DNA of 64,000 nt from positions 83 to 64,082 of the forward strand of contig DYER01000030.1 in NCBI GenBank assembly GCA_020725605.1, in the 5' to 3' direction. Position numbers and translations under genes: made by a program. Of the stretch, positions 4,623 to 56,320 are shown in pieces. Each line of letters begins with the position of its first letter. Position 1 is the first letter of the stretch. The notes beneath the pieces are model-generated. The model saw only the letters and a program-made list of their open reading frames with translations, was not told where the DNA came from and did not search any database. Source of the DNA: Ammonifex sp. (lineage in GTDB: Bacteria > Bacillota > Desulfotomaculia > Desulfotomaculales > DYER01).

Positions 4623-4640
4623 GGTTTCGGCCTCCTCTTC

Positions 4641-4708
4641 GACGGGGAGTTTTGCCACCCCACCGCTACCGAGAACCGGGTGGCTTTCCGAAGGTAAAAT
4701 TCCCCTTG
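4641..4708 (-). repeat. Inverted-repeat intergenic element, copy R1
   Basis: The minus strand reads CAAGGGGAATTTTACC-TTCGGAAAGCCACCCGGTTCTCGGTAGCGGTGGGGT-GGCAAAACTCCCCGTC. It ends 18 nt upstream of the amidase ATG. Confidence 0.85.
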
Positions 4709-4787
4709 GTTTGACGCCGTTTCGGCCGGCGTGGCGGGAAGCCCGCGCCGCGCCCCCGTCGGGCCGGCGCGGGCCCCGCCGCCCGGG

Positions 4788-5012
4788 CTACGTGACCTGC
4801 AGTTCGGTGACCTCGCGCGCCACGATGCGGGCCCCGGCGATGCCGGTCAGGTCCCCTCCGCTCGTGGTGAAGACGTTGCGGGCCAGAATGGTCTGCATGG
4901 CGCCCTGTACTTCGGCGGCCGTAACGTTGTCCCGCGGCTCCACCACCGCCAGCGTCACCCTCCGGCCCGCGGCGTTGGTGAACTGCATCTCCAGCCGTCT
5001 GGTGATGGCCAC
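4788..5012 (-). CDS. DUF2922-family small protein
   Basis: (M)AITRRLEMQFTNAAGRRVTLAVVEPRDNVTAAEVQGAMQTILARNVFTTSGGDLTGIAGARIVAREVTELQVT matches the DUF2922 pattern. The GTG at 5012 follows GGGGGTG. Confidence 0.75.
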   Translation of the reverse strand: MAITRRLEMQFTNAAGRRVTLAVVEPRDNVTAAEVQGAMQTILARNVFTTSGGDLTGIAGARIVAREVTELQVT

Positions 5013-5106
5013 TTCGGTCACACCCCCTTTCCTCGCGGGATGCGGGCGGCCGGCGCGCCGCCGGCTTTTACGGCCTGGTACCGGCACCGGCGGCGCGACG
5101 GCCTTC

Positions 5107-5174
5107 GACGAACAATCTTACCGACGTACCGGCACCGACGGTTGGATAGGTTTCCGAGGGAGAATTCCTTCGAC
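5107..5174 (-). repeat. Inverted-repeat intergenic element, copy R2 (decayed; tandem with R3)
   Basis: The minus strand reads GTCGAAGGAATTCTCCC-TCGGAAACCTATCCAACCGTCGGTGCCGGTACGTC-GGTAAGATTGTTCGTC. The core is conserved and the arms are degenerate. Confidence 0.65.
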
Positions 5175-5238
5175 GGAGAATTTTGCCGGCGTGCCGGTAC
5201 CCAAGGTGGGATGGCTTTCCGGGGCAAAATTCCCCGTC
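5172..5238 (-). repeat. Inverted-repeat intergenic element, copy R3
   Basis: The minus strand reads GACGGGGAATTTTGCC-CCGGAAAGCCATCCCACCTTGGGTACCGGCACGCC-GGCAAAATTCTCCGTC. It sits 1 nt downstream of the DUF1659 stop codon. Confidence 0.85.
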
Positions 5239-5239
5239 G

Positions 5240-5464
5240 TTACACCGCCGCCAGGGCCGCTTCGTTAACCCTGATGATCTGCACCGTGGGGTACCTGTGC
5301 AGGCCCGCCAGGGCCGCGGCCACGTCGAAGACCTCCTGGTCCGTCGCGGCCGGCTTCACCTGGTCGTAGTTGCGGCTCCGCAAGACCGGGTCGCCGCTGG
5401 CGTCGGTGCCGACCTGCACCCGCAGGCGGATGGTGGTTTCCAGGGGCGTCACCGCTACCGGCAC
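5240..5464 (-). CDS. DUF1659-family small protein
   Basis: ...TTIRLRVQVGTDASGDPVLRSRNYDQVKPAATDQEVFDVAAALAGLHRYPTVQIIRVNEAAL matches the DUF1659 pattern. The start is probably the GTG at 5464, 8 nt after GGGAGG. The ORF track starts at 5473. Confidence 0.75.
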   Translation of the reverse strand: MPVAVTPLETTIRLRVQVGTDASGDPVLRSRNYDQVKPAATDQEVFDVAAALAGLHRYPTVQIIRVNEAALAAV

Positions 5465-5696
5465 CGGGTTCACCTCCCTTCCACCCCGATTTTAGGCCCG
5501 GCGGCCCCGCCGCGGCAAAGGCCGTACCGCACGGGGTGCGGCACGCGCTCCCGGTCCGAACCGGGCCGCCGCCGGCCGGGCCCGGGCCTCGGACCCGCAC
5601 CGGGGGTGCGGCCGCCGGAGGGTACCGGGTGCGGCGGCCGGTCCGGGGGCGGACCGCCGGGGTCCGGACGCCGTACCCCTGTGGAAACGGAAAAAC

Positions 5697-5760
5697 GACC
5701 GGGAACTTGCCCCCGCTGGCACCGAGAACCGATGGGCCTTCCGAGGGCAAATTTTCCGTC
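5697..5760 (-). repeat. Inverted-repeat intergenic element, copy R4
   Basis: The minus strand reads GACGGAAAATTTGCCC-TCGGAAGGCCCATCGGTTCTCGGTGCCAGCGGG-GGCAAGTTCCCGGTC. Confidence 0.75.
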
Positions 5761-5793
5761 GAAAGAATCCCCGCCGGCACCCGGCACGGACAA

Positions 5794-11168: not shown

Positions 11169-12143
11169 TCACCCACCGCCGCGGGCCCTGCGCAGTTCCT
11201 CGATGAGCAGGGGCAGCACCGCCCGCAGGTCCCCCACGATGCCCACGTCGGCCACCTCGAAGATGGGGGCGCCTGCGTTCTGGTCCACGGCGAAGATGAC
11301 CCCGGAACCCAGGAAGCCGGTGGTGAAGTGCATGGCGCCCGAGGCCCCGAGGCTCACGAAGAGCCTGGGGCTCACGGTCCTGCCGCTCTGGCCGATCATG
11401 AGTTCTTCGGGAATCCAGCCGCGGTCCACGGCCGGCCTGGTGCCGCCCACGGCCGCCCCCAGGAGGCGGGCCAGCTCCCAAACGGGTTCGAACCCGCCCG
11501 CGGCGTGGAGGCCCCACCCGCCGGCCACCACCACCTCCGCCGCCTCCAGACTGACGCCCGCGGGCTCCTCCTCCGCCATCTCCAGGGTGCGGGCGCGCAG
11601 CGATTCCTCCCGTAAGTCGCAGGGGACGCGCACCAGCTCGCCCCTGCGGCCGGAGTCCCCCTGGGGCACGGGGAAGACCCCGGGCTTGACCGTGGCCATC
11701 TGGGGGTTCCGGAGGCAGACGTATTCCCAGAGGGTACCCCGGCCCAGACCCGGCACCACCTGCACCAGGCGCCCTTCTTCGTTAACGTAAAGGTCCACGC
11801 AGTGGGCCGTGAGCCCGGTGCCCAGTCTGGCCGCCACCCGGGCCGCCAGCTCCCGGCCCAGGGTGGTGGCCCCCAGGAGAATGACTTCGGGGCCGTGTTC
11901 CCCGGCCAGCCGGGCCAGCAGGTCCGCGCAGGCGTCGCTCTGGTAAAGGCGCAGCAAAGGGTGGTCCACCAGGTAGACCTTCTCCGCCCCGTGGGCGAAG
12001 AGCTCCCCGGCCGCCTCCTCCACCCCGTGGCCCAGGAGCACCGCGGCCGGTACGGCCCCGAGGGCCGGGGCCAGTTCGCGGGCCTTGCCCAGGAGTTCCA
12101 GGGACACCGGCAGCAGCCGGCCCCGCCTCTGTTCGGCCCACAC
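11169..12143 (-). CDS. etfA: Electron transfer flavoprotein, alpha subunit
   Basis: ETF alpha FAD-binding C-terminus (...AVGGTRPAVDRGWIPEELMIGQSGRTVSPRLFVSLGASGAMHFTTG...). The start is reassigned to the GTG at 12143, 6 nt after GGAG. The ORF-track N-terminus (to 12239) translates repeat R5. Confidence 0.9.
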   Translation of the reverse strand: MWAEQRRGRLLPVSLELLGKARELAPALGAVPAAVLLGHGVEEAAGELFAHGAEKVYLVDHPLLRLYQSDACADLLARLAGEHGPEVILLGATTLGRELAARVAARLGTGLTAHCVDLYVNEEGRLVQVVPGLGRGTLWEYVCLRNPQMATVKPGVFPVPQGDSGRRGELVRVPCDLREESLRARTLEMAEEEPAGVSLEAAEVVVAGGWGLHAAGGFEPVWELARLLGAAVGGTRPAVDRGWIPEELMIGQSGRTVSPRLFVSLGASGAMHFTTGFLGSGVIFAVDQNAGAPIFEVADVGIVGDLRAVLPLLIEELRRARGGG

Positions 12144-12153
12144 CCACAGCTCC

Positions 12154-12221
12154 GACGGGGAATTTTGCCTTCGGAAGGCAATCCGGTTGCCGGCACCGGT
12201 GGGTTGGCAAAATTTCCCGTC
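12154..12221 (+). repeat. Inverted-repeat intergenic element, copy R5
   Basis: GACGGGGAATTTTGCC-TTCGGAAGGCAATCCGGTTGCCGGCACCGGTGGGTT-GGCAAAATTTCCCGTC. It fills the etfB-etfA spacer. Confidence 0.9.
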
Positions 12222-12235
12222 GTCTCGCGCCACGC

Positions 12236-12982
12236 TCACAGCACCCCCAGTTCCTTCAGCCTTGCAACGGCCTTCTTCACGGCCTCCTCCGGGGGACCGG
12301 AGAAAATCTCCTTTCGGCGGCCGAATTCTTTCGTGAGCTCGCGGACCAGGCGCGTGGGAGAACCCTCAAGGCCCACCAGGCCGGGGTCCAGGCCGAGGTC
12401 CTCCGCGTTCCAGACCGTGATCTCTTTCCCGGCGGCGGCCATGATGCCCCAGACCGTGGGCAGGCGGGGCGCGTTGATCCCCTTGACCACGGCCACGAGG
12501 GCCGGCAGCCGCACCTCGACCCTCATGTGGCCGTGCTCCAGGGCCCTTTCCGCCAGCAGCCGGTCCGGGGCCGGGGCCTCCAGCCTCCGCACGTGGGTCA
12601 CGCAGGGCACCCCCAGGAATTCGGCCAGCTGGGGCCCCACCTGCCCCGTGGCCCCGGTGGCGGACTCGTTCCCGCACAGCAGCAGGTCGAAGGGACCCAG
12701 GCGCCTGATGCCGTGGGAAAGGGTGCGGGCCGTGGCCAGGGTGTCGGCCCCGGCGAAGCGCTCGTCGCACAGGAACACGGCCCGGTCCGCGCCCGCAGCC
12801 AGGGCCTCTTCCAGGGCGCGCCCGGCCGGCGGCGAGCCCATGGTGAGGGCCGTCACCCGGCCCCCGAACCGCTCCTTGAGGCGCAGGGCCTCCTCCAGGG
12901 CGTGCCGCTCCAGGGGGCCGATGGCCGACCGCCCGGGCTCTGCCCCGTCCCTCACCCTTCTGACGCACACTATGAGCTCCAT
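12236..12982 (-). CDS. etfB: Electron transfer flavoprotein, beta subunit
   Basis: Internal ATG at 12982 of ORF 12236..13777. The 248 aa product MELIVCVRRV...LLLCGNESATGATGQVGPQLAEFLGVPCVTHV... matches ETF beta. Confidence 0.9.
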   Translation of the reverse strand: MELIVCVRRVRDGAEPGRSAIGPLERHALEEALRLKERFGGRVTALTMGSPPAGRALEEALAAGADRAVFLCDERFAGADTLATARTLSHGIRRLGPFDLLLCGNESATGATGQVGPQLAEFLGVPCVTHVRRLEAPAPDRLLAERALEHGHMRVEVRLPALVAVVKGINAPRLPTVWGIMAAAGKEITVWNAEDLGLDPGLVGLEGSPTRLVRELTKEFGRRKEIFSGPPEEAVKKAVARLKELGVL

Positions 12983-17237: not shown

Positions 17238-17255
17238 TCCGGCACCCCCGTCTTC

Positions 17256-17320
17256 GACGCGGAATTTTGCCGCGGAAGGCTATTCGGTCCTCGGCAGCGA
17301 TGTTGGCAAAATTCCCCGCC
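17256..17320 (+). repeat. Inverted-repeat intergenic element, copy R6
   Basis: GACGCGGAATTTTGCC-GCGGAAGGCTATTCGGTCCTCGGCAGCGATGTT-GGCAAAATTCCCCGCC. It lies between the aldolase stop (17328) and the mtaD start (17237). Confidence 0.85.
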
Positions 17321-17327
17321 GGTCTCG

Positions 17328-22745: not shown

Positions 22746-23846
22746 GTGCGGGTGGCCATTGTGGGCGCCGGGCCGGCCGGCCTGGCCTGCGCCATCGAGC
22801 TGGAACGTCGCGGCATCCAGCCCGACATCTTCGAGCGGCGGTACCGGGTCGGGCTGCCGCATTCCTTTCCCATGGTACTCCTCCAGCCCTTTTCCGCCGG
22901 CGGCGTCAGCGACCAGATGGTCTTTTTGCGGGATAGGCTCGGCATCCACCTGAATCCCCTTCAGCCCCTGGGCCGGATCGTGATGCACGGCCCCACCAGG
23001 AAGGCCGTGATCGGGGGGGCGCTGGGCTACATCCTGGAGCGCGGCCAGGGCCCGGACAGCGTGGAAAGCCAGCTCCTGCGGCAGCTCACCACGCCGGTGA
23101 CCTACAACCACCACGCCGACTACCGCAGCCTGGCGCGGGAGTACGACTACGTCGTGGTGGCCGACGGGCGCCCAGACGTGGCCCGCAGCCTCGGCTACTG
23201 GCAACCCCACGGCAGGGTTGCGGTGCGCGGGGCCGTCATTCTGGGCCGCTTCGAACCGCAGACCGTGCACATGTATCTGGACACCTCCTTCGCCCGGCAG
23301 GGGTTTGCCGTGGAGATCCCCTTCGGCCCGCACCACGCTTCCCTGCTGCTGATGGTGACGGGCATCAGGACCGACGAGCTCAACGACCACTGGGCCCGGT
23401 TCCTGTACCGCACCGGAAAGAGCCCCGAGATCGTGGAGACCTTCGAGTCCGAACACGAAACGGGCCTGGTCTCCCGCCGCAGCCACGGTAACCTGCTGCT
23501 GGCGGGCAACGCCGGCGGCTTCACCGAGACCTGCCTGGGCCTCGGCGTGTTCGCGGCCGTGGTGAGCGGGGTGCTGGCCGCCCGGGCCGTGGCGGAAGAC
23601 CGGGACTTCGAGGCCCTGGCGCGGCCCCTGGTCAGGCACGCGGAGCGCATGCACCTGCTGCGCGCGGCCCTGGACCGCATGGATAACGCGGATCTGGACC
23701 GGCTGGTGGGGGTCCTGGGACTTCCGGGAGTGAGGCACCTCTTCTACAACGCGCGGCTCAACCCCATGCGCCTGGTGCCCGCGGTTCTGGCCCTGGCCGC
23801 GCGCCGGCGGCGGATCGGACTGCGGGCCGCCCGCGGGGGGAAGTGA
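22746..23846 (+). CDS. FAD-dependent oxidoreductase (geranylgeranyl-reductase-like flavoprotein), paralog 1
   Basis: 366 aa. Dinucleotide-binding motif VAIVGAGPAGLACAIELERRG. The GTG start lies 8 nt after AAAGGGGG. Confidence 0.8.
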   Translation: MRVAIVGAGPAGLACAIELERRGIQPDIFERRYRVGLPHSFPMVLLQPFSAGGVSDQMVFLRDRLGIHLNPLQPLGRIVMHGPTRKAVIGGALGYILERGQGPDSVESQLLRQLTTPVTYNHHADYRSLAREYDYVVVADGRPDVARSLGYWQPHGRVAVRGAVILGRFEPQTVHMYLDTSFARQGFAVEIPFGPHHASLLLMVTGIRTDELNDHWARFLYRTGKSPEIVETFESEHETGLVSRRSHGNLLLAGNAGGFTETCLGLGVFAAVVSGVLAARAVAEDRDFEALARPLVRHAERMHLLRAALDRMDNADLDRLVGVLGLPGVRHLFYNARLNPMRLVPAVLALAARRRRIGLRAARGGK

Positions 23847-25069
23847 CCTTGCGGGTGGCGATCATAGGCGCGGGCGCGGCCGGCCTGGCCTGCGCCGTCG
23901 AGCTGCAGCGCCACGGCGTGGTCCCGGAACTCTTCGAGCAGCGGCCGCGGGTGGGTGAACTCTTCCCCCACGTGGCCGGAACCCTGCAGCTCTTCAACCG
24001 TCCGGTGGACGACCAGGTGCGGTACCTGCGCCGGGAGTTCGGCCTGGCCCTTACGCCCCTGGCGCCCATGCGGCGCATCCTCATGAAGACCCCCTACCGC
24101 ACCCGCGAGGTGCGCGGCCGGCTGGGCTACTTTTTCCTGCGCGGGCAGGACCCCGACTCGCTGGAGAATCAGCTGTGCAGCGCCGTCACCTCGCCCATCC
24201 ACTTCAACACCAGGGCCGACCACCGCTACCTGGCCCGCCGGTACGACTACGTAGTGGTGGCCACGGGCAACAACGAGGTGCCGGCGGCCCTTGGTTGCTG
24301 GCAGCCCCTGATGAAGGCCGTGGTGCGGGGGGCGGTGGTGCTGGGGGAATTCGACCCCTATACCATCGTCATGTGGGTCGACACCCAGTACACCAAGGGC
24401 GGCTACGCCTACCTGACGCCCTTCTCGGCCCGGCGGGCCTCGCTGGTGCTGAACGTGCCCGACGCCCCACCGGCGGCCGCCGACTACTACTGGTCCACCT
24501 TCTGGCGCGCGGAAAACCTGCGGTATCAGGTCGTGGAGGACTTTGTGTGGGAGCACTACTTCGGGTGGGTGTATCCCCATCGGGTGGGCAACGTGCTGCT
24601 GGCGGGAATCGCGGGCGGGTTCATGGAAACCTTCCTGGGTTTCGGGCTGCTGGGGGCTCTGAGGAGCGGGGTACTGGCGGCCCGCGCCATCGCCACCGGA
24701 CAGGACTACGAGGAACTGGTCAAGCCCCTGCGGCGCGAAATGCACCAGACCCTGGTTTTCCGCGAGTGGCTCAACCGGGCCACCAACCGCGACGTGGACC
24801 TGCTGGTGCGCGTTATTACTTCTCCCGGCCTCAGACAGCTTATCTACAACACCAACCTGGAGTGGATCAAGTGGACTGCCCGGAGCATGACCCTGTGGCG
24901 CCGGGTGGCGGACCGGCTCCGGCAATTGAGGGGGGCCGGTATTCCGGCGCGGGACCCTAAGCATCGTCCCGTACGCCCCGCAGCACCGCCACGCCCAGCA
25001 GAAAGGCCGGAAGGACCAGTTCCAGCACCAGGGCGAAGCCGGGAAAGACCCTGGCGAAGAATTCCGTGA
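23843..25069 (+). CDS. FAD-dependent oxidoreductase, paralog 2 (tandem duplicate)
   Basis: 408 aa. VAIIGAGAAGLACAVELQRHG, colinear with paralog 1. The start overlaps the upstream stop (GTGA). The last 45 or so codons are low-complexity and antisense to the convergent gene. Confidence 0.8.
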   Translation: MTLRVAIIGAGAAGLACAVELQRHGVVPELFEQRPRVGELFPHVAGTLQLFNRPVDDQVRYLRREFGLALTPLAPMRRILMKTPYRTREVRGRLGYFFLRGQDPDSLENQLCSAVTSPIHFNTRADHRYLARRYDYVVVATGNNEVPAALGCWQPLMKAVVRGAVVLGEFDPYTIVMWVDTQYTKGGYAYLTPFSARRASLVLNVPDAPPAAADYYWSTFWRAENLRYQVVEDFVWEHYFGWVYPHRVGNVLLAGIAGGFMETFLGFGLLGALRSGVLAARAIATGQDYEELVKPLRREMHQTLVFREWLNRATNRDVDLLVRVITSPGLRQLIYNTNLEWIKWTARSMTLWRRVADRLRQLRGAGIPARDPKHRPVRPAAPPRPAERPEGPVPAPGRSRERPWRRIP

Positions 25070-26063: not shown

Positions 26064-26228
26064 TTTTTTCGCCTCCGGGCAATAGTATCCGCCGCCCACG
26101 GACCGGCCTATGCCGGTAAGGCCCGCGGAGGGCACCGTCCCGGAGCGCGGCAGGGTGCGTCGGGTAATGGGGGGCCGCGCCGCGCCCCCCGGGAAAAAAG
26201 CGCGGCACGAAGGCCGCGCCGGCGAAAC

Positions 26229-26296
26229 GACGGGGAATTTTGCCTTCGGAAAGCCACGCGATTATCGGTACCGGTGGGTTGGCAAAATTCCCCGTC
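26229..26296 (+). repeat. Inverted-repeat intergenic element, copy R7 (best preserved)
   Basis: GACGGGGAATTTTGCC-TTCGGAAAGCCACGCGATTATCGGTACCGGTGGGTT-GGCAAAATTCCCCGTC. The two 16-nt arms are perfect reverse complements. Confidence 0.9.
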
Positions 26297-26358
26297 GAAC
26301 GGACGGACCGCCCTGCGTAGAAGGGCGGCCCGTGCCGAACGGATACCCGATTGTTAAT

Positions 26359-53000: not shown

Positions 53001-53435
53001 GGGGCGGCCGTCGGCTTCCATGTTGCCGTACCTGCCGAGGCTCCGGCCCAGGCGCTCGGCGGCCGCGAGGTCCGGCAACAGCACGAGGTGGTGGACCTTG
53101 CGCACCCGTCCGCCTTTCTTGTAGATGGTGCTGACCTCGCCGGTGACCACGAAGCGCACCAGCGGCCGGCCGTCGGGCTCCACGGGGCCGGGCCAGTGGG
53201 CCACCGGAGGCCGGCGCAGGTCTTCGGGCTCCTTCTTGAGGCGGTATAGCCCCCCTTCCGCCTCGGCAAGCCCGTCCCGCAGTTCTTCCCGCCAGGCCGG
53301 GTGGGTGCAGTCGCCCGTGCCCACCAGGCTCACGCCCTTGTACACGGCCCAGCGGTAGTAATTTTCCGGCGTGGCGTCCCGGCTGGTGGCCCGGGAGTAG
53401 CGGGAATGGACGTGCAGGTCCGCGACGTACTCCAT
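50091..53435 (-). CDS. Fusion protein: N-terminal endonuclease Q-like PHP domain with zinc finger, plus C-terminal UvrD/PcrA-type superfamily 1 helicase
   Basis: 1114 aa. The N-terminus ADLHVHSRYSRATS...GTGDCTHPAW...FFPEEGKYHYDGHRAC...CPVCGRRVTVGVLHRVEELAD is an EndoQ/TIGR00375-like pattern. From about aa 480: LNREQWAAV...VIAGPGTGKTRTLVYRIAHL...TFTNRAAEE...DEFQD...TLHAAKGLEF...LFYVGLTRA. Confidence 0.85.
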   Translation of the reverse strand: MEYVADLHVHSRYSRATSRDATPENYYRWAVYKGVSLVGTGDCTHPAWREELRDGLAEAEGGLYRLKKEPEDLRRPPVAHWPGPVEPDGRPLVRFVVTGEVSTIYKKGGRVRKVHHLVLLPDLAAAERLGRSLGRYGNMEADGRPVLGLDSRDLLALVLETAPEALLVPAHVWTPHFSLFGANSGFDAAEECFEDLTAHVTALETGLSSDPPMNWRLSALDRFLLVSNSDAHSPRNLAREANLLDTPLTYPDLYLALRGASGGLVGTLEFFPEEGKYHYDGHRACRVRWRPAETLKNGGLCPVCGRRVTVGVLHRVEELADRAPGARPAGARPFESLVPLPEVIADALGVGPNSRQVLRTYFSLLQRLGPELFVLRSAPLEEVARLAGSLVAEALRRMRAGEIELLPGFDGEYGKIVLIRPEERSLFGEQTRFFAVTGPVPGEKESAGEVGPAGGRVRPVGMPARPEAPAPFSEPLNREQWAAVRATEGPVIVIAGPGTGKTRTLVYRIAHLVGERGVPPREITAVTFTNRAAEEVRRRAGEILAGAADPGDLTVGTFHGLCLDLLRRARSPERLTVLDEVDAREVLAEALREAGRPPREAARWQQVLSLYKSRGLGPEDPGVPPDLRPLYLAYLEKLASYRALDYDDLLLEAAALVEADPASGPVREFLCRCTHLLVDEFQDVNPVQYRLVRLWARRPENLFVIGDPDQAIYGFRGADHRLFRRLKEDFPQAKVCRLRVNYRSTPTILRAARALAADPGDLTAVREDGAQVVHLEAPGETAEGIAVAREISGLVGGTSMLTAGQDGGRWGFADIAVLFRTGRQAALLEECLLKEGIPYRVVGREGFLEERPVREVLNFLRCVADPEDDWHALLCLGGDRFRLGPRGLALVREEAGRRGGVWRAASALASSAALDPADREKLAAFVAEVEAYRRLAAAEPPERLLARVVEQGESGAAESMRRLLRLAARFGNLASFLRGLVLAQEADWERPGAGGPTPEAVSLMTLHAAKGLEFPVVFITGVEDGLLPLRDAEDPDEERRLFYVGLTRARDLLILTSARTRTLRGTRVRTGPSAFLRYLPPDCLQRKGWAGPGGKKKGGSEGRPGHEQLQLFEF

Positions 53436-53511: not shown

Positions 53512-53520
53512 TGGTATAAT
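53512..53520 (+). promoter_or_regulatory. Candidate extended -10 promoter element for the radical SAM gene
   Basis: TGgTATAAT at 53512-53520. The -35 is weak (TGCATT, 18 nt upstream). Confidence 0.35.
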
Positions 53521-53586
53521 CTTGGTGGGCGCGGGGCCGGCAGGTCGGTCGCCCCGCGTAAGGGCCGCCGCCAAGGGGGGAGCAAC

Positions 53587-54570
53587 GTGGGCTTCAACGG
53601 GGAATTTCGCCTTCGGAAAGCTACCCGGTCCCCGGCATCGGGGGGTGGGCACAATGCCCCGCCGTTCGTACCCGCCTACCGCCGCCTGGCCCGGGAAGAG
53701 CTGGCGCGCCGTGCGCAGGAAGCCCTGACGGGCCTGAAGGAGTGCCGCGTGTGCCCCCACCGCTGCGGCGTGGACCGCACCGCCGGGGAGAAGGGATTCT
53801 GCAAGGCCGGGGCCCGGGCCCTGGTGAGCAGCTACGGCCCCCACTTCGGGGAGGAGGCGCCCCTGGTCGGCCTGCACGGCTCGGGCACCATCTTCTTCGG
53901 CCTCTGCAACATGCGCTGCATCTACTGCCAGAACTACCAGCTGAGCTGGGGCGGCGAGGGGGATCCCGTGACGGCCGAGGAACTGGCCCGCATGATGCTC
54001 TGGCTGCAGAAAATCGGCTGTCACAACATCAATTTCGTTTCCCCCACTCACTTCGTACCCCAGATCCTTGAAGGCCTCGTCGTGGCCGCGGAACGGGGTC
54101 TGGAGCTACCCCTGGTGTACAACTGCGGCGGCTACGAGGCCCCGGAAACCCTGGCCCTGCTGGACGGCATCATCGACATCTACATGCCGGACCTGAAGTA
54201 CGCGGATGCCGAGACCGCCCGCAGGTACTCGGGCGTGCGCGACTACCCGGCGGTGGCCAAGGCCGCCATCAAGGAAATGCAGCGCCAGGTGGGGGACCTG
54301 ACCTTCGACGAAAACGGCATCGCCCTCAGGGGCCTGCTGGTCCGACACCTGGTGCTTCCGGGGGGCCTGGCAGGTACGGACGAACTCATGGAGTTCCTGG
54401 CCCGCGAAGTGTCCCCGGATTGCTTCGTGAACGTGATGGCCCAGTACCACCCCTGCCTGCACGCCTGGGAGAACCCGCCCCTGGACCGCCGCCCCACCCC
54501 GGCCGAATACCGCGCCGCCGTGGCCGCGGCCCGGGACCGGGGCCTGAGGGTGTACCGCAACGGGCTTTAG
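53587..54570 (+). CDS. Radical SAM protein (COG1313/PflX-like putative activating enzyme)
   Basis: CNMRCIYCQN (CxxxCxxC). The conserved family N-terminus begins at FVPAYRRLAREEL...CRVCPHRCGVDR. The only in-frame canonical start upstream of it is the GTG at 53587, after GGGGGGAG, so repeat R8 would be translated. Confidence 0.8.
   Translation: MGFNGEFRLRKATRSPASGGGHNAPPFVPAYRRLAREELARRAQEALTGLKECRVCPHRCGVDRTAGEKGFCKAGARALVSSYGPHFGEEAPLVGLHGSGTIFFGLCNMRCIYCQNYQLSWGGEGDPVTAEELARMMLWLQKIGCHNINFVSPTHFVPQILEGLVVAAERGLELPLVYNCGGYEAPETLALLDGIIDIYMPDLKYADAETARRYSGVRDYPAVAKAAIKEMQRQVGDLTFDENGIALRGLLVRHLVLPGGLAGTDELMEFLAREVSPDCFVNVMAQYHPCLHAWENPPLDRRPTPAEYRAAVAAARDRGLRVYRNGL
53596..53666 (+). repeat. 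Inverted-repeat element, copy R8 (diverged), inside the predicted 5' end of the radical SAM CDS
   Basis: AACGGGGAATTTCGCC-TTCGGAAAGCTACCCGGTCCCCGGCATCGGGGGGTG-GGCACAATGCCCCGCCGTT. Confidence 0.7.
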
Positions 54571-54707
54571 GTCCAGCCCCGGAACCACAGGAACCGCGGC
54601 GCACCGTCCGCTCCGCCGCCGGCCAAAAGGGCGCCGCGGGCGGCGCCGGCCCGCCGCGGTGGGCGCGGCCGGGCAACCTGAAGAGCCCGCGGCCCGCCAC
54701 GGCGGAC

Positions 54708-54746
54708 GAAAAAGCGGCCGGCCCCGCAATGGGGTGCCGGCCGGCG
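54708..54746 (-). terminator. Rho-independent terminator after the MCP gene
   Basis: The minus strand has a GC-rich hairpin (CCGGCCGGCACCCC-attg-CGGGGCCGGCCG) followed by CTTTTTCG, about 20 nt after the stop at 54767. Confidence 0.6.
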
Positions 54747-54766
54747 CCAGGCAAGGCGGCCCGGCA

Positions 54767-56320
54767 TCAGGCCAGCCGGAACCTGGCCACCAATTTTTCC
54801 AGATCGCCGGCCAGTCCGGCCAGATCCCGAGCCGTGGCGGAAACCTTTTCTACAGTTGCCGTCTGCTCTTCGGCCGTCGCGGTCACATTTTGCACCGCCG
54901 CGGATATCTCCTCGGCCGAGGCGGCCACGGACTGGATATTGTCCGCCAGACTCTGAACAGAGCCAATGATTTCCGCAAAGGTGGCCCCGGCTTCCTTTAC
55001 CAGGCGTGCCCCGGCTTCCACCTGGGCCGCGTTCTGCTCGACACCCCGGAGGGCCTTCTGAGACTCCGCCTGGACGGCCGCGATGAGGGCCTGGATCTCT
55101 TTACCCGCTTGCGCCGACTGCTCGGCCAGCTTTCTGACCTCTTCGGCCACGACGGCAAAGCCCTTGCCGTGCTCTCCCGCCCGGGCGGCCTCGATGGCGG
55201 CGTTCAGGGCCAGCAGGTTCGTCTGGTCCGCAATGTGGGTAATGAGATCGACAATCTGGGTGATCTTCCCGCTGGCCTCGAGGAGCCCGTTGACGATCTG
55301 GCCCGCCGCCACGGCCACCTGTTGTATCTGGTCCATCTGTGCCAGGACATCCTGCAGGGCCTGGCTCCCTTTTCTGGCCAGCTGACCCGCCCTTTCGGAT
55401 TCGCCGGCGATGTGCTGGGTATTTGAAGCGACCTGTTCCACCGTGGCGGCCACTTCCCCGATGGTGGAGGCCGTCTCGTTGGCCCCGATGCTGACGTTTT
55501 CGGCGCTGGATGAGAGTTCGGCGGCACTGGAGGTTAGGAACCGGGACTTTTCCGCCAGCTGTCCGATAATCTCTTTCAGGTTGCGCACCATGGTATTAAA
55601 GGCCGCTCCCAACTGGCCGATCTCGTTTTTCGCCGTGACGGAAATCTGGCCGGTGAGGTCCCCGGAAGCGATCCGCGAGGCTTCCGCGGCGAGGGCCCTT
55701 ACCGGCCCGACGATTCCCCGCAGCAAGAGCAAGCAGATGGCCAGGCACGCGAGGACCGTCACGACGCCCGCAACCACCAGGAAATTCCGTAGCCTTACGG
55801 CATGAGCCGCGTCCTCTAAAGTCTCCCGGTGGACCCCCTCCGTCTTTCCTTCCACGTAATTGGTTACAATGGTCTGAAGCTGATTCCTCAGATCGGAGTA
55901 CTCACCCTTGTAAATGGCCACCGCTTCCTCGGGATTGGTACCGGCCTTCTCCATTATTTGGGCTTCCAGCTCGCAAAGGCGCACATTCAGCCTGTCGACG
56001 CGATCGAAGGTTTCCTTGCCGGCCGGGTCCAGCTCCTTCATCCTTTTGATGGTCCTGTCGATTTTGTCGGCGTATTCATTGTACCTCTGCCGCTCGTTTT
56101 GGTCTGAGGGGTCGATAATTATCCCCCGCACGGCATCGGTGAGGGTCAAATCCTGGAACTTAATCTCCTTCGCCGTAGCCAGTATTTCGATGTCTCTGGC
56201 CGCTATTTCAGAAAGCCTCTTACTCACGTGCGCCAGCTCCAGAACGGAAAGCCCCACGGCGAAGGCCAGCAACAGTACGACCAGCCCCATGCCAAGCTGC
56301 AGCCCGTAACGTTTCAGCAT
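54767..56320 (-). CDS. Methyl-accepting chemotaxis protein (4HB sensor, HAMP, MA domain)
   Basis: 517 aa with an N-terminal TM segment, a HAMP region and the conserved signalling hairpin ...[31 protein letters not shown]... Confidence 0.9.

Follow-up and report, generated by a model that had tools for sequence, protein, structure and literature searches.

An in-frame MITE-like insertion in codon 3 of a PflX-type radical SAM gene, probably translated as a tolerated passenger peptide

Comparison of related loci places a diverged copy of a roughly 70-nt inverted-repeat element inside codon 3 of a PflX-type radical SAM gene in the window, by which we mean the whole 64-kb stretch of DNA analysed here. 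On this comparison the element is an in-frame insertion that lies downstream of an intact ancestral GTG start codon and Shine-Dalgarno (SD) sequence, and not on the start codon, where one explanation in the original prediction had put it. We consider it very probable that this MITE-like insertion is translated as a 24-residue passenger that the enzyme tolerates. In-frame intragenic insertion of MITEs, REPs and RPEs is already established, and the present case is a further example that raises no new biological question. It offers a clean case of selfish DNA turned coding in a Gram-positive lineage. One can reconstruct precisely where the element went in, what it duplicated and how the ancestral protein began, and three descendant lineages display the aftermath as apparently neutral peptide drift, in-frame deletion and hairpin loss.

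A family of short inverted-repeat elements in the window

Repeat finding, blastn and nhmmer recovered eight copies of one family within the 64-kb window:

4640-4709, minus strand: family copy, intergenic, between the stop of a DUF2922 gene and the SD and start (4622) of an amidase gene
5106-5168, minus strand: degenerate family copy (nhmmer E = 1.4e-6 / 2.6e-8), in tandem with the 5171-5239 copy, with TT between them
5171-5239, minus strand: family copy, intergenic, adjoining the stop codon of a small gene (5240-5473, minus strand)
5696-5761, minus strand: family copy, intergenic
12153-12222, plus strand: family copy, 9 nt upstream of the likely etfA GTG start (12143, minus strand)
17255-17321, plus strand: family copy occupying the space between the stop of an aldolase gene (17328) and the start of an amidohydrolase gene (17237)
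26228-26297, plus strand: the best preserved of the family (arms 17/17), with the ftsY stop on one side and the start of a spore-germination permease gene on the other
53595-53664, plus strand: diverged 70-nt MITE-like copy, with arms at 53595-53611 and 53648-53664, forming part of residues 3-26

Family elements are 66-70 nt long and carry 17-bp terminal inverted repeats (CGACGGGGAATTTTGCC ... GGCAAAATTCCCCGTCG) around a conserved centre of ~36 nt. The seven copies other than 53595-53664 are all intergenic and sit tight against gene ends; the final base of the 12153-12222 copy belongs to the GGAG of etfA, and in the longest ORF of that gene the ETF Pfam domain begins at residue 32. Copies are oriented both ways relative to the neighbouring genes, which counts against a strand-specific RNA function. 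Intact copies fold into one long stem-loop (about -37 kcal/mol, z about -4). In the intergenic copies the arms are complementary at 13 to 17 of 17 positions, and the MFE fold contains 15-17 arm pairs. An Rfam scan of the window gave no match in any region, which places the repeat outside the described RNA families; the tRNA scan was also empty.

The family is below 300 bp and without coding capacity, has terminal inverted repeats, occurs in multiple dispersed copies and is flanked by an apparent target-site duplication, as is characteristic of MITEs. No parent IS or transposase bearing matching inverted repeats was seen in the window, and the arm sequence CGACGGGGAATTTTGCC was absent from the searchable literature. 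Identical arms are also present in Desulfovirgula thermocuniculi DSM 16036. When a genome collection was scanned with the pattern GAATTTTGCC N25-50 GGCAAAATTC, the hits were mainly chance hairpins in unrelated taxa, and the family itself appeared in only two contigs of D. thermocuniculi.

The host gene encodes a PFL-activase-like radical SAM protein

The features at the 5' end of the host gene, and the gene itself, are as follows:

53512-53520, plus strand: putative extended -10 element TGgTATAAT (TATAAT at 53515-53520), invariant in six related loci
53575-53582, plus strand: Shine-Dalgarno sequence GGGGGGAG, separated from the downstream GTG by 4 nt; all six loci share AGGGGGGA unchanged
53587-53589, plus strand: probable ancestral GTG start codon, invariant in six loci
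53587-54570, plus strand: radical SAM gene with the insertion, assigned as PflX / PFL-activase-like by PF04055, homologues and fold, and made up of 327 codons and a stop
53593-53594, plus strand: left copy of the apparent TT duplication, which supplies positions 1 and 2 of codon 3 (TTC)
53665-53666, plus strand: right copy of the apparent TT duplication, at positions 1 and 2 of the codon for F27, where the conserved FVPAYRRL begins

On the plus strand, an open frame extends from 53434 as far as the stop at 54570, and the radical SAM gene shares its frame with the GTG at 53587-53589. On the minus strand, a divergent PHP/UvrD-type helicase gene begins at 53435, leaving 151 nt of intergenic DNA up to this GTG, in a window whose G+C content is 68%. 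The product of 53587-54570 contains both a Radical_SAM domain (PF04055, Pfam domain match, E = 1e-12) and the CxxxCxxC cluster motif (CNMRCIYC, residue 107, DNA 53905), the two features that place it in the PflX/PFL-activase-like group; a first Cys cluster, CRVCPHRC, lies at 53743. It has more than 8000 homologues of ~300 aa, many of them named 'putative pyruvate formate lyase activating enzyme'. A sequence search of the PDB with the product returned zero hits, and a fold search was used instead: the closest match of the AlphaFold2 (AF2) model, which has a mean pLDDT of 90, was the PFL-activating enzyme (PFL-AE) 3c8f, with a TM of 0.73 on the target. The 327-aa product read from GTG 53587 is already recorded publicly as P0121, whose 90% cluster has 15 members with N-termini of three kinds.

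Relatives share the insertion in three N-terminal lineages

We aligned the DNA of six loci from different samples and independent assemblies (NCBI, ENA, JGI and Logan), which fall into three N-terminal lineages:

Lineage A (window, L004, L006): N-terminus MGFNGEFRLRKATRSPASGGGHNAPPF
Lineage B (L001, L002): N-terminus MGFE----MRKASRPSASGGGQDSPSF
Lineage C (L003, L005): N-terminus VSFDGEFRLRKATRSSTSVGGPNSPSF

Across the six loci TGGTATAAT, AGGGGGGA and the GTG are invariant, and the element is in frame in all of them. The sole indel within the element is an in-frame loss of 12 nt in lineage B, which removes 4 codons and most of the left arm; indels in the 5' UTR are of 1-2 nt. Downstream of the element, FVPAYRRL changes at third codon positions only (TTC/TTT, CCC/CCG/CCT), all synonymously. 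In the L003/L005 copy the arms are complementary at 16 of 17 positions, and each is 1 mismatch from the consensus.

Among the matches listed, the copy was present in all relatives of at least 88% identity and missing from all those of 70% or less, with none at 70-88%. No empty site was found among these matches in relatives closer than about 70% protein identity (metagenome relatives are at 69% or less), so the insertion event is reconstructed and not observed. One named relative belongs to a clade labelled Desulfotomaculales.

The element lies within codon 3 and is flanked by an apparent TT duplication

A profile built from six intergenic copies only scored 53596-53664 at 44.7 bits (E = 2e-12), and since the 53595-53664 copy was excluded from the profile, its assignment to the family is not circular. 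Its arms, CAACGGGGAATTTCGCC / GGCACAATGCCCCGCCG against the consensus CGACGGGGAATTTTGCC / GGCAAAATTCCCCGTCG, are complementary at just 12 of 17 positions. The frame from GTG 53587 reads VGFNGEFRLRKATRSPASGGGHNAPP and then FVPAYRRL from 53665, without a stop, and continues in frame to 54570, as the original prediction had stated. We do not attach significance to the open frame itself, a reading we considered and rejected: across the nine copies, 48 of 54 frame-by-orientation readings contain no stop, so that nearly every frame through the element is open.

The flanks of the insertion read GTG GGC TT / element / TT C GTA CCC. The same dinucleotide was found on both sides of 7 of the nine copies (6 with TT/TT or AA/AA and 1 with TC/TC) and was missing at two, the copy at 17255 and the Desulfovirgula copy L039. 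A flank match is expected by chance at 0.082 per copy, giving P about 8e-7 for at least 7 of 9, although a duplication of only 2 bp makes each single case weak. The tandem pair is arranged TT-copy-TT-copy-TT. Strand-specific insertion of the IS200/IS605 type beside TT, without duplication, was also considered; the occurrence of TT and AA flanks in both orientations fits a symmetric duplication better. The 70-nt copy and the 2-nt duplication add up to 72 nt, so that any frame is kept.

Excising the element with one TT (72 nt, 24 codons) yields GTG GGC TTC GTA CCC GCC TAC, or MGFVPAYRRL. The original prediction had proposed alignment with orthologous radical SAM proteins, and this alignment gives the same answer: homologues begin M-x-F-x-x-A-Y (MDFIPAYKKL, MAFTAAYRRL and, in P0036, MGFTAAYRRL), in the register of the excised GTG GGC TTC. 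After excision, the first Cys of CxxCxxxCG falls at index 28, the modal position, shared by 14 of 49 motif-anchored homologues including the nearest outgroups. Likewise, the best 80 metagenome relatives listed (52-69% identity) mostly align from query residue 27-30, the start of the conserved protein. Because excision restores the outgroup register, GTG 53587 and its SD would be the ancestral start signals. The placement of a repeat copy at the ancestral N-terminus thus holds. FVPAYRRL does follow from 53665, as first described; instead of about 26 residues added in front, 24 are inserted after residue 2/3.

Inserted codons appear near-neutral, which argues against exaptation

Selection on the insert (codons 3-26) was compared with that on the rest of the gene by dN/dS (Nei-Gojobori), the insert estimates resting on 60-72 nt:

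Window vs L001: insert 0.82, rest of gene 0.11
L001 vs L003: insert 0.59, rest of gene 0.12
Window vs L003: insert above 1 (few sites), rest of gene 0.12

Overall, the insert gave values of 0.59-0.82, exceeding 1 in two pairs with few sites, against 0.06-0.12 for the remaining gene, and its amino acids diverged about 7-8 times faster. In the AF2 model, residues 1-21 have a pLDDT below 50 and the remainder about 90 or higher; low values in the tail are partly due to sparse alignment coverage, as only 3 of the 36 aligned sequences extend over it. The best reading of these results is that the inserted codons are near-neutral and that the tail is a probably disordered, tolerated passenger, with selection acting only against frameshifts and stops.

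The original prediction had suggested that the element was exapted as coding sequence. One form of this idea is that the basic, Gly-rich 24-residue tail serves the activase-like enzyme in partner recognition or targeting; another is that the element was co-opted in cis, its hairpin acting as a translational regulator or thermosensor in a thermophile-related lineage. In the regulatory version, L003/L005 keep a ~16-bp hairpin that starts 9 nt beyond the GTG and that might control the loading of ribosomes, depending on temperature or on a helicase, and the window lineage would have escaped such control through arm decay. Such a role would be in keeping with retention of the insertion in frame across a divergence of dS about 0.33, with changes common to all lineages that replace hydrophobic residues of the consensus (C to R, W to G, LSVPV to small or polar residues), and with the stem that persists in lineage C. 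The insert dN/dS could also reflect selection on RNA structure. However, at about 0.6-0.8 or more it is far from the roughly 0.1 of the host gene, lineage B lost its 4 codons without any compensating change, the hairpin is gone in the window lineage, and the tail is modelled as disordered. Exaptation is therefore not supported by the comparison or the model, and we regard it as unlikely in either form.

The 53595-53664 copy is the only one with 0 arm pairs in its MFE fold (z = -0.6), and in lineage C a long stem (16/17) starts at +9 from the GTG. Because lineage C retains this near-perfect hairpin after the start codon, arm decay is not required for function. Loss of the hairpin in two lineages would fit relief of an initiation block, and also plain decay.

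GTG 53587 is very probably the start codon and the element is almost certainly translated

The sequence TGgTATAAT stands out in the intergenic region because the bases neighbouring it vary among the six loci. A sigma-70 consensus scan did not find a full -35/-10 pair, and conservation is the sole basis on which we call this a putative promoter. From its position, transcription would begin near 53527, giving a 5' UTR of about 60 nt. In the window this UTR also folds into a hairpin at 53529-53559, whose conservation is not clear in the six-locus alignment.

From the -10 box to the first Cys cluster, GTG 53587 is the sole in-frame ATG, GTG or TTG, and none occurs in the window at 53590-53748, element included. 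The original prediction had extended this absence of alternative starts to the CxxxCxxC motif; it holds as far as CRVCPHRC at 53743, but in-frame GTGs occur at 53749, 53770 and 53824, ahead of CNMRCIYC, and starting at any of these would lose invariant residues. Since FVPAYRRL changes only synonymously and there is no other start, initiation would take place at GTG 53587 with read-through of the element, and from this comparison we infer that the element is almost certainly translated, as originally proposed.

If the element were instead 5' UTR, with the repeat untranslated, initiation would have to use a non-canonical codon further downstream, namely CTG 53686, the only near-cognate codon at 53590-53748, or one of the later GTGs. 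Two points favour this reading: GTAG/CGTC REPs include copies at predicted ORF N-termini, many of which are probably extragenic with mis-called starts (PMC3733652), and P0123 (GCA_052743895.1) is recorded as starting MGREEL, at the CTG 53686 codon. Yet this CTG follows FVPAYRR and has no purine-rich SD, its upstream sequence being ACCCGCCTACCGCCGC. The FVPAYRR upstream of it is under synonymous-only change in the clade and includes Y31, which is invariant in the family alignment (A4, 36 sequences); the GTGs from 53749 onwards would delete the invariant C53; and the conserved SD and GTG at 53575-53589 would be left unexplained. Non-canonical initiation, which the original prediction had entertained, is on these grounds very unlikely.

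Near-identical genes in public records carry five different starts (MGF/VGF/VSF, MRKAS, VGGPN/MGGPN, MGREEL and MCPHRC), of which the correct annotated start is GTG 53587.

The gene is intact

An insertion 6 nt into a coding sequence is often disruptive, and together with the disagreement of gene callers on the start this might suggest a decaying pseudogene inactivated by the element. Against this, the remaining gene has a dN/dS of 0.06-0.12 over three lineages, the invariant family residues are all present with both Cys motifs intact (A4), and the AF2 model is confident, so that we judge pseudogenization highly improbable.

A frameshift or sequencing error within 53640-53670, such that a 1-nt indel would bring an ATG in the right arm into frame as the true start, is scarcely credible despite the G-rich stretch GGGGGGTGGG immediately 5' of that ATG. 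Six assemblies from different samples and pipelines agree on the frame, the element contains no indel other than the 12-nt one, and the start would fall inside the repeat and away from the homologue start position. The ATG, which is indeed out of frame (+1) as first described but at 53654-53656 and not 53653, is a T-to-G change confined to the window and L006, with AATTCC or GGATTCC in the remaining four loci.

Proposed history of the insertion

We propose that a miniature inverted-repeat element of ~70 nt transposed into codon 3 of the PflX-type radical SAM gene and duplicated the TT at its target, in an ancestor of the clade labelled Desulfotomaculales in one named relative. The added 72 nt (70 + 2), in a G+C-rich element that happened to be stop-free in that frame, would have left the gene intact, and the original promoter, SD and GTG 53587 would still drive its expression. 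The element would then be read as 24 extra residues, MG-FNGEFRLRKATRSPASGGGHNAPP-FVPAYRRL, forming a presumably disordered tail that the enzyme tolerates, with selection on the reading frame and not on the peptide sequence. Later, the arms would have decayed in the window or been partly deleted in another lineage, removing a strong hairpin that would otherwise lie from 9 nt past the GTG.

Comparison with known repeat insertions

The closest parallel is with the Rickettsia palindromic elements (RPEs; Ogata et al. 2000), which passages in two sources describe as in-frame, translated palindromic repeats in conserved genes, with N-termini decorated by RPE-1 reported as expressed and insertions tolerated at termini or loops (PMC10969869, PMC3733652). 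Like RPEs, the 53595-53664 copy is a short palindromic mobile repeat lying in frame in a functional conserved gene, to which it would add an extra peptide; its frame is kept in six loci and its host gene is under purifying selection. We liken it to RPEs by its mode of insertion, and do not claim it as a member of RPE-1 to RPE-10. RPEs differ in belonging to an unrelated phylum and sequence, in being typically ~100-150 bp and in occurring in many genes, whereas here one of eight copies in 64 kb is intragenic; the present family has, in addition, clear 17-bp terminal inverted repeats and the apparent TT duplication. By analogy, the 53595-53664 insertion may work like an RPE insertion, made by a MITE-like family unrelated to RPEs in a Desulfotomaculales-related lineage.

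In-frame intragenic repeats are also known for ERIC, Coxiella QMITE1 and Anabaena MITEs (PMC10969869). These bacterial MITEs resemble the present family in having terminal inverted repeats, in being non-coding and dispersed beside gene starts and stops, and, as for the element of about 70 nt described here, in their occasional in-frame fusion with a host ORF. The present family differs from them in a sequence not found in the searchable literature and a duplication of merely 2 bp.

REPs and CGTC-tagged REPs share with the family a palindromic structure, abundance in short intergenic gaps and the occasional occurrence as dimers or at ORF N-termini, and the arms of the present family end in CGTCG, resembling the REP tag. 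A CGTC-tagged REP is defined by an 8-9-bp stem, a 4-5-nt loop and a 3-nt tail, with the CGTC tag at one end (PMC3733652); with arms of 17 bp around a centre of ~36 nt, the present family falls outside this class.

The peptides predicted from a translated element include GFNGEFR and ATRSPASGGGHNAPPFVPAYR.

Start annotation in the radical SAM gene and etfA

Different pipelines have assigned five different starts to near-identical radical SAM genes (the P0001 cluster, proteins P0121-P0134), and two of these, MGREEL and MCPHRC, lose conserved residues.

Starts on record in the P0001 cluster
MGF/VGF/VSF: the GTG start
MRKAS
VGGPN/MGGPN
MGREEL: at a CTG
MCPHRC

The start-annotation hazard at etfA is of the same kind.

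Feature at etfA
Window 12141-12239, minus strand: etfA start region and repeat copy

Here, the longest etfA ORF, which runs from GTG 12239 on the minus strand, reads through the repeat copy at 12153-12222, and its ETF domain begins at residue 32. A second candidate start, GTG 12143, is preceded 6 nt upstream by GGAG, the first G of which is the last base of the repeat copy. We found GTG 12143 to be the likelier start of etfA; with that start, the repeat element contributes part of the ribosome-binding site.

Rearrangement and possible recombination at the radical SAM gene

Close relatives vary in how the radical SAM gene ends at its 3' side and in the genes that follow it (window 54550-54770; relatives' loci L001 and L003-L006). 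The protein ends in RVYRNGL in the window and in RVYRDWVPPFLG(YQ) in the relatives. A methyl-accepting chemotaxis gene lies directly 3' of the gene in the window, in L003 and L005 a PIN-domain pair lies between it and the chemotaxis gene, adenine deaminase is found downstream in L004 and L006, and other genes occupy this position in L001. A rearrangement breakpoint is located at this end of the gene.

Divergence within the gene is mosaic when L004 (970-1968) is compared with the window (53587-54570). The 72-nt insert (the repeat copy plus its TT duplication within codon 3) shows a single base difference between the two, and the region upstream shows few, yet dS across the gene body is 0.33 for L004 versus the window, compared with just 0.20 for L004 versus L001. 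This pattern suggests that these lineages have recombined inside the gene.

Within the window, part of the presumed radical SAM 5' UTR (53529-53559) folds into a G+C-rich stem (GCGCGGGGCC...GGTCGCCCCGCG); we did not find clear conservation of this stem in the relatives, which carry 1-2-nt indels there.

Other repeat copies

A 1.1-kb stretch of the window (4640-5761) holds four repeat copies, which bracket two small genes (DUF2922, 4788-5087, and a 77-aa ORF, 5240-5473) upstream of an N-acetylmuramoyl-L-alanine amidase gene. Two of the copies, 5106-5168 and 5171-5239, form a tandem pair with TT between them, as though one copy had landed at the other's edge.

The repeat family is also present in a cultured species, Desulfovirgula thermocuniculi DSM 16036 (L039 207-275 and L049 3593-3661), where the arms (CGACGGAGAATTTTGCC) are complementary at 17/17 positions; the central part differs from that of the window copies. 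These two occurrences look like one sequence on overlapping contig ends.

Elsewhere in the window, two neighboring units of ~1.1 kb at 22747-24730 (repeat families D5, D11, and D20; spacing 1100-1103) share 72-76% identity and are probably tandem paralogous genes.
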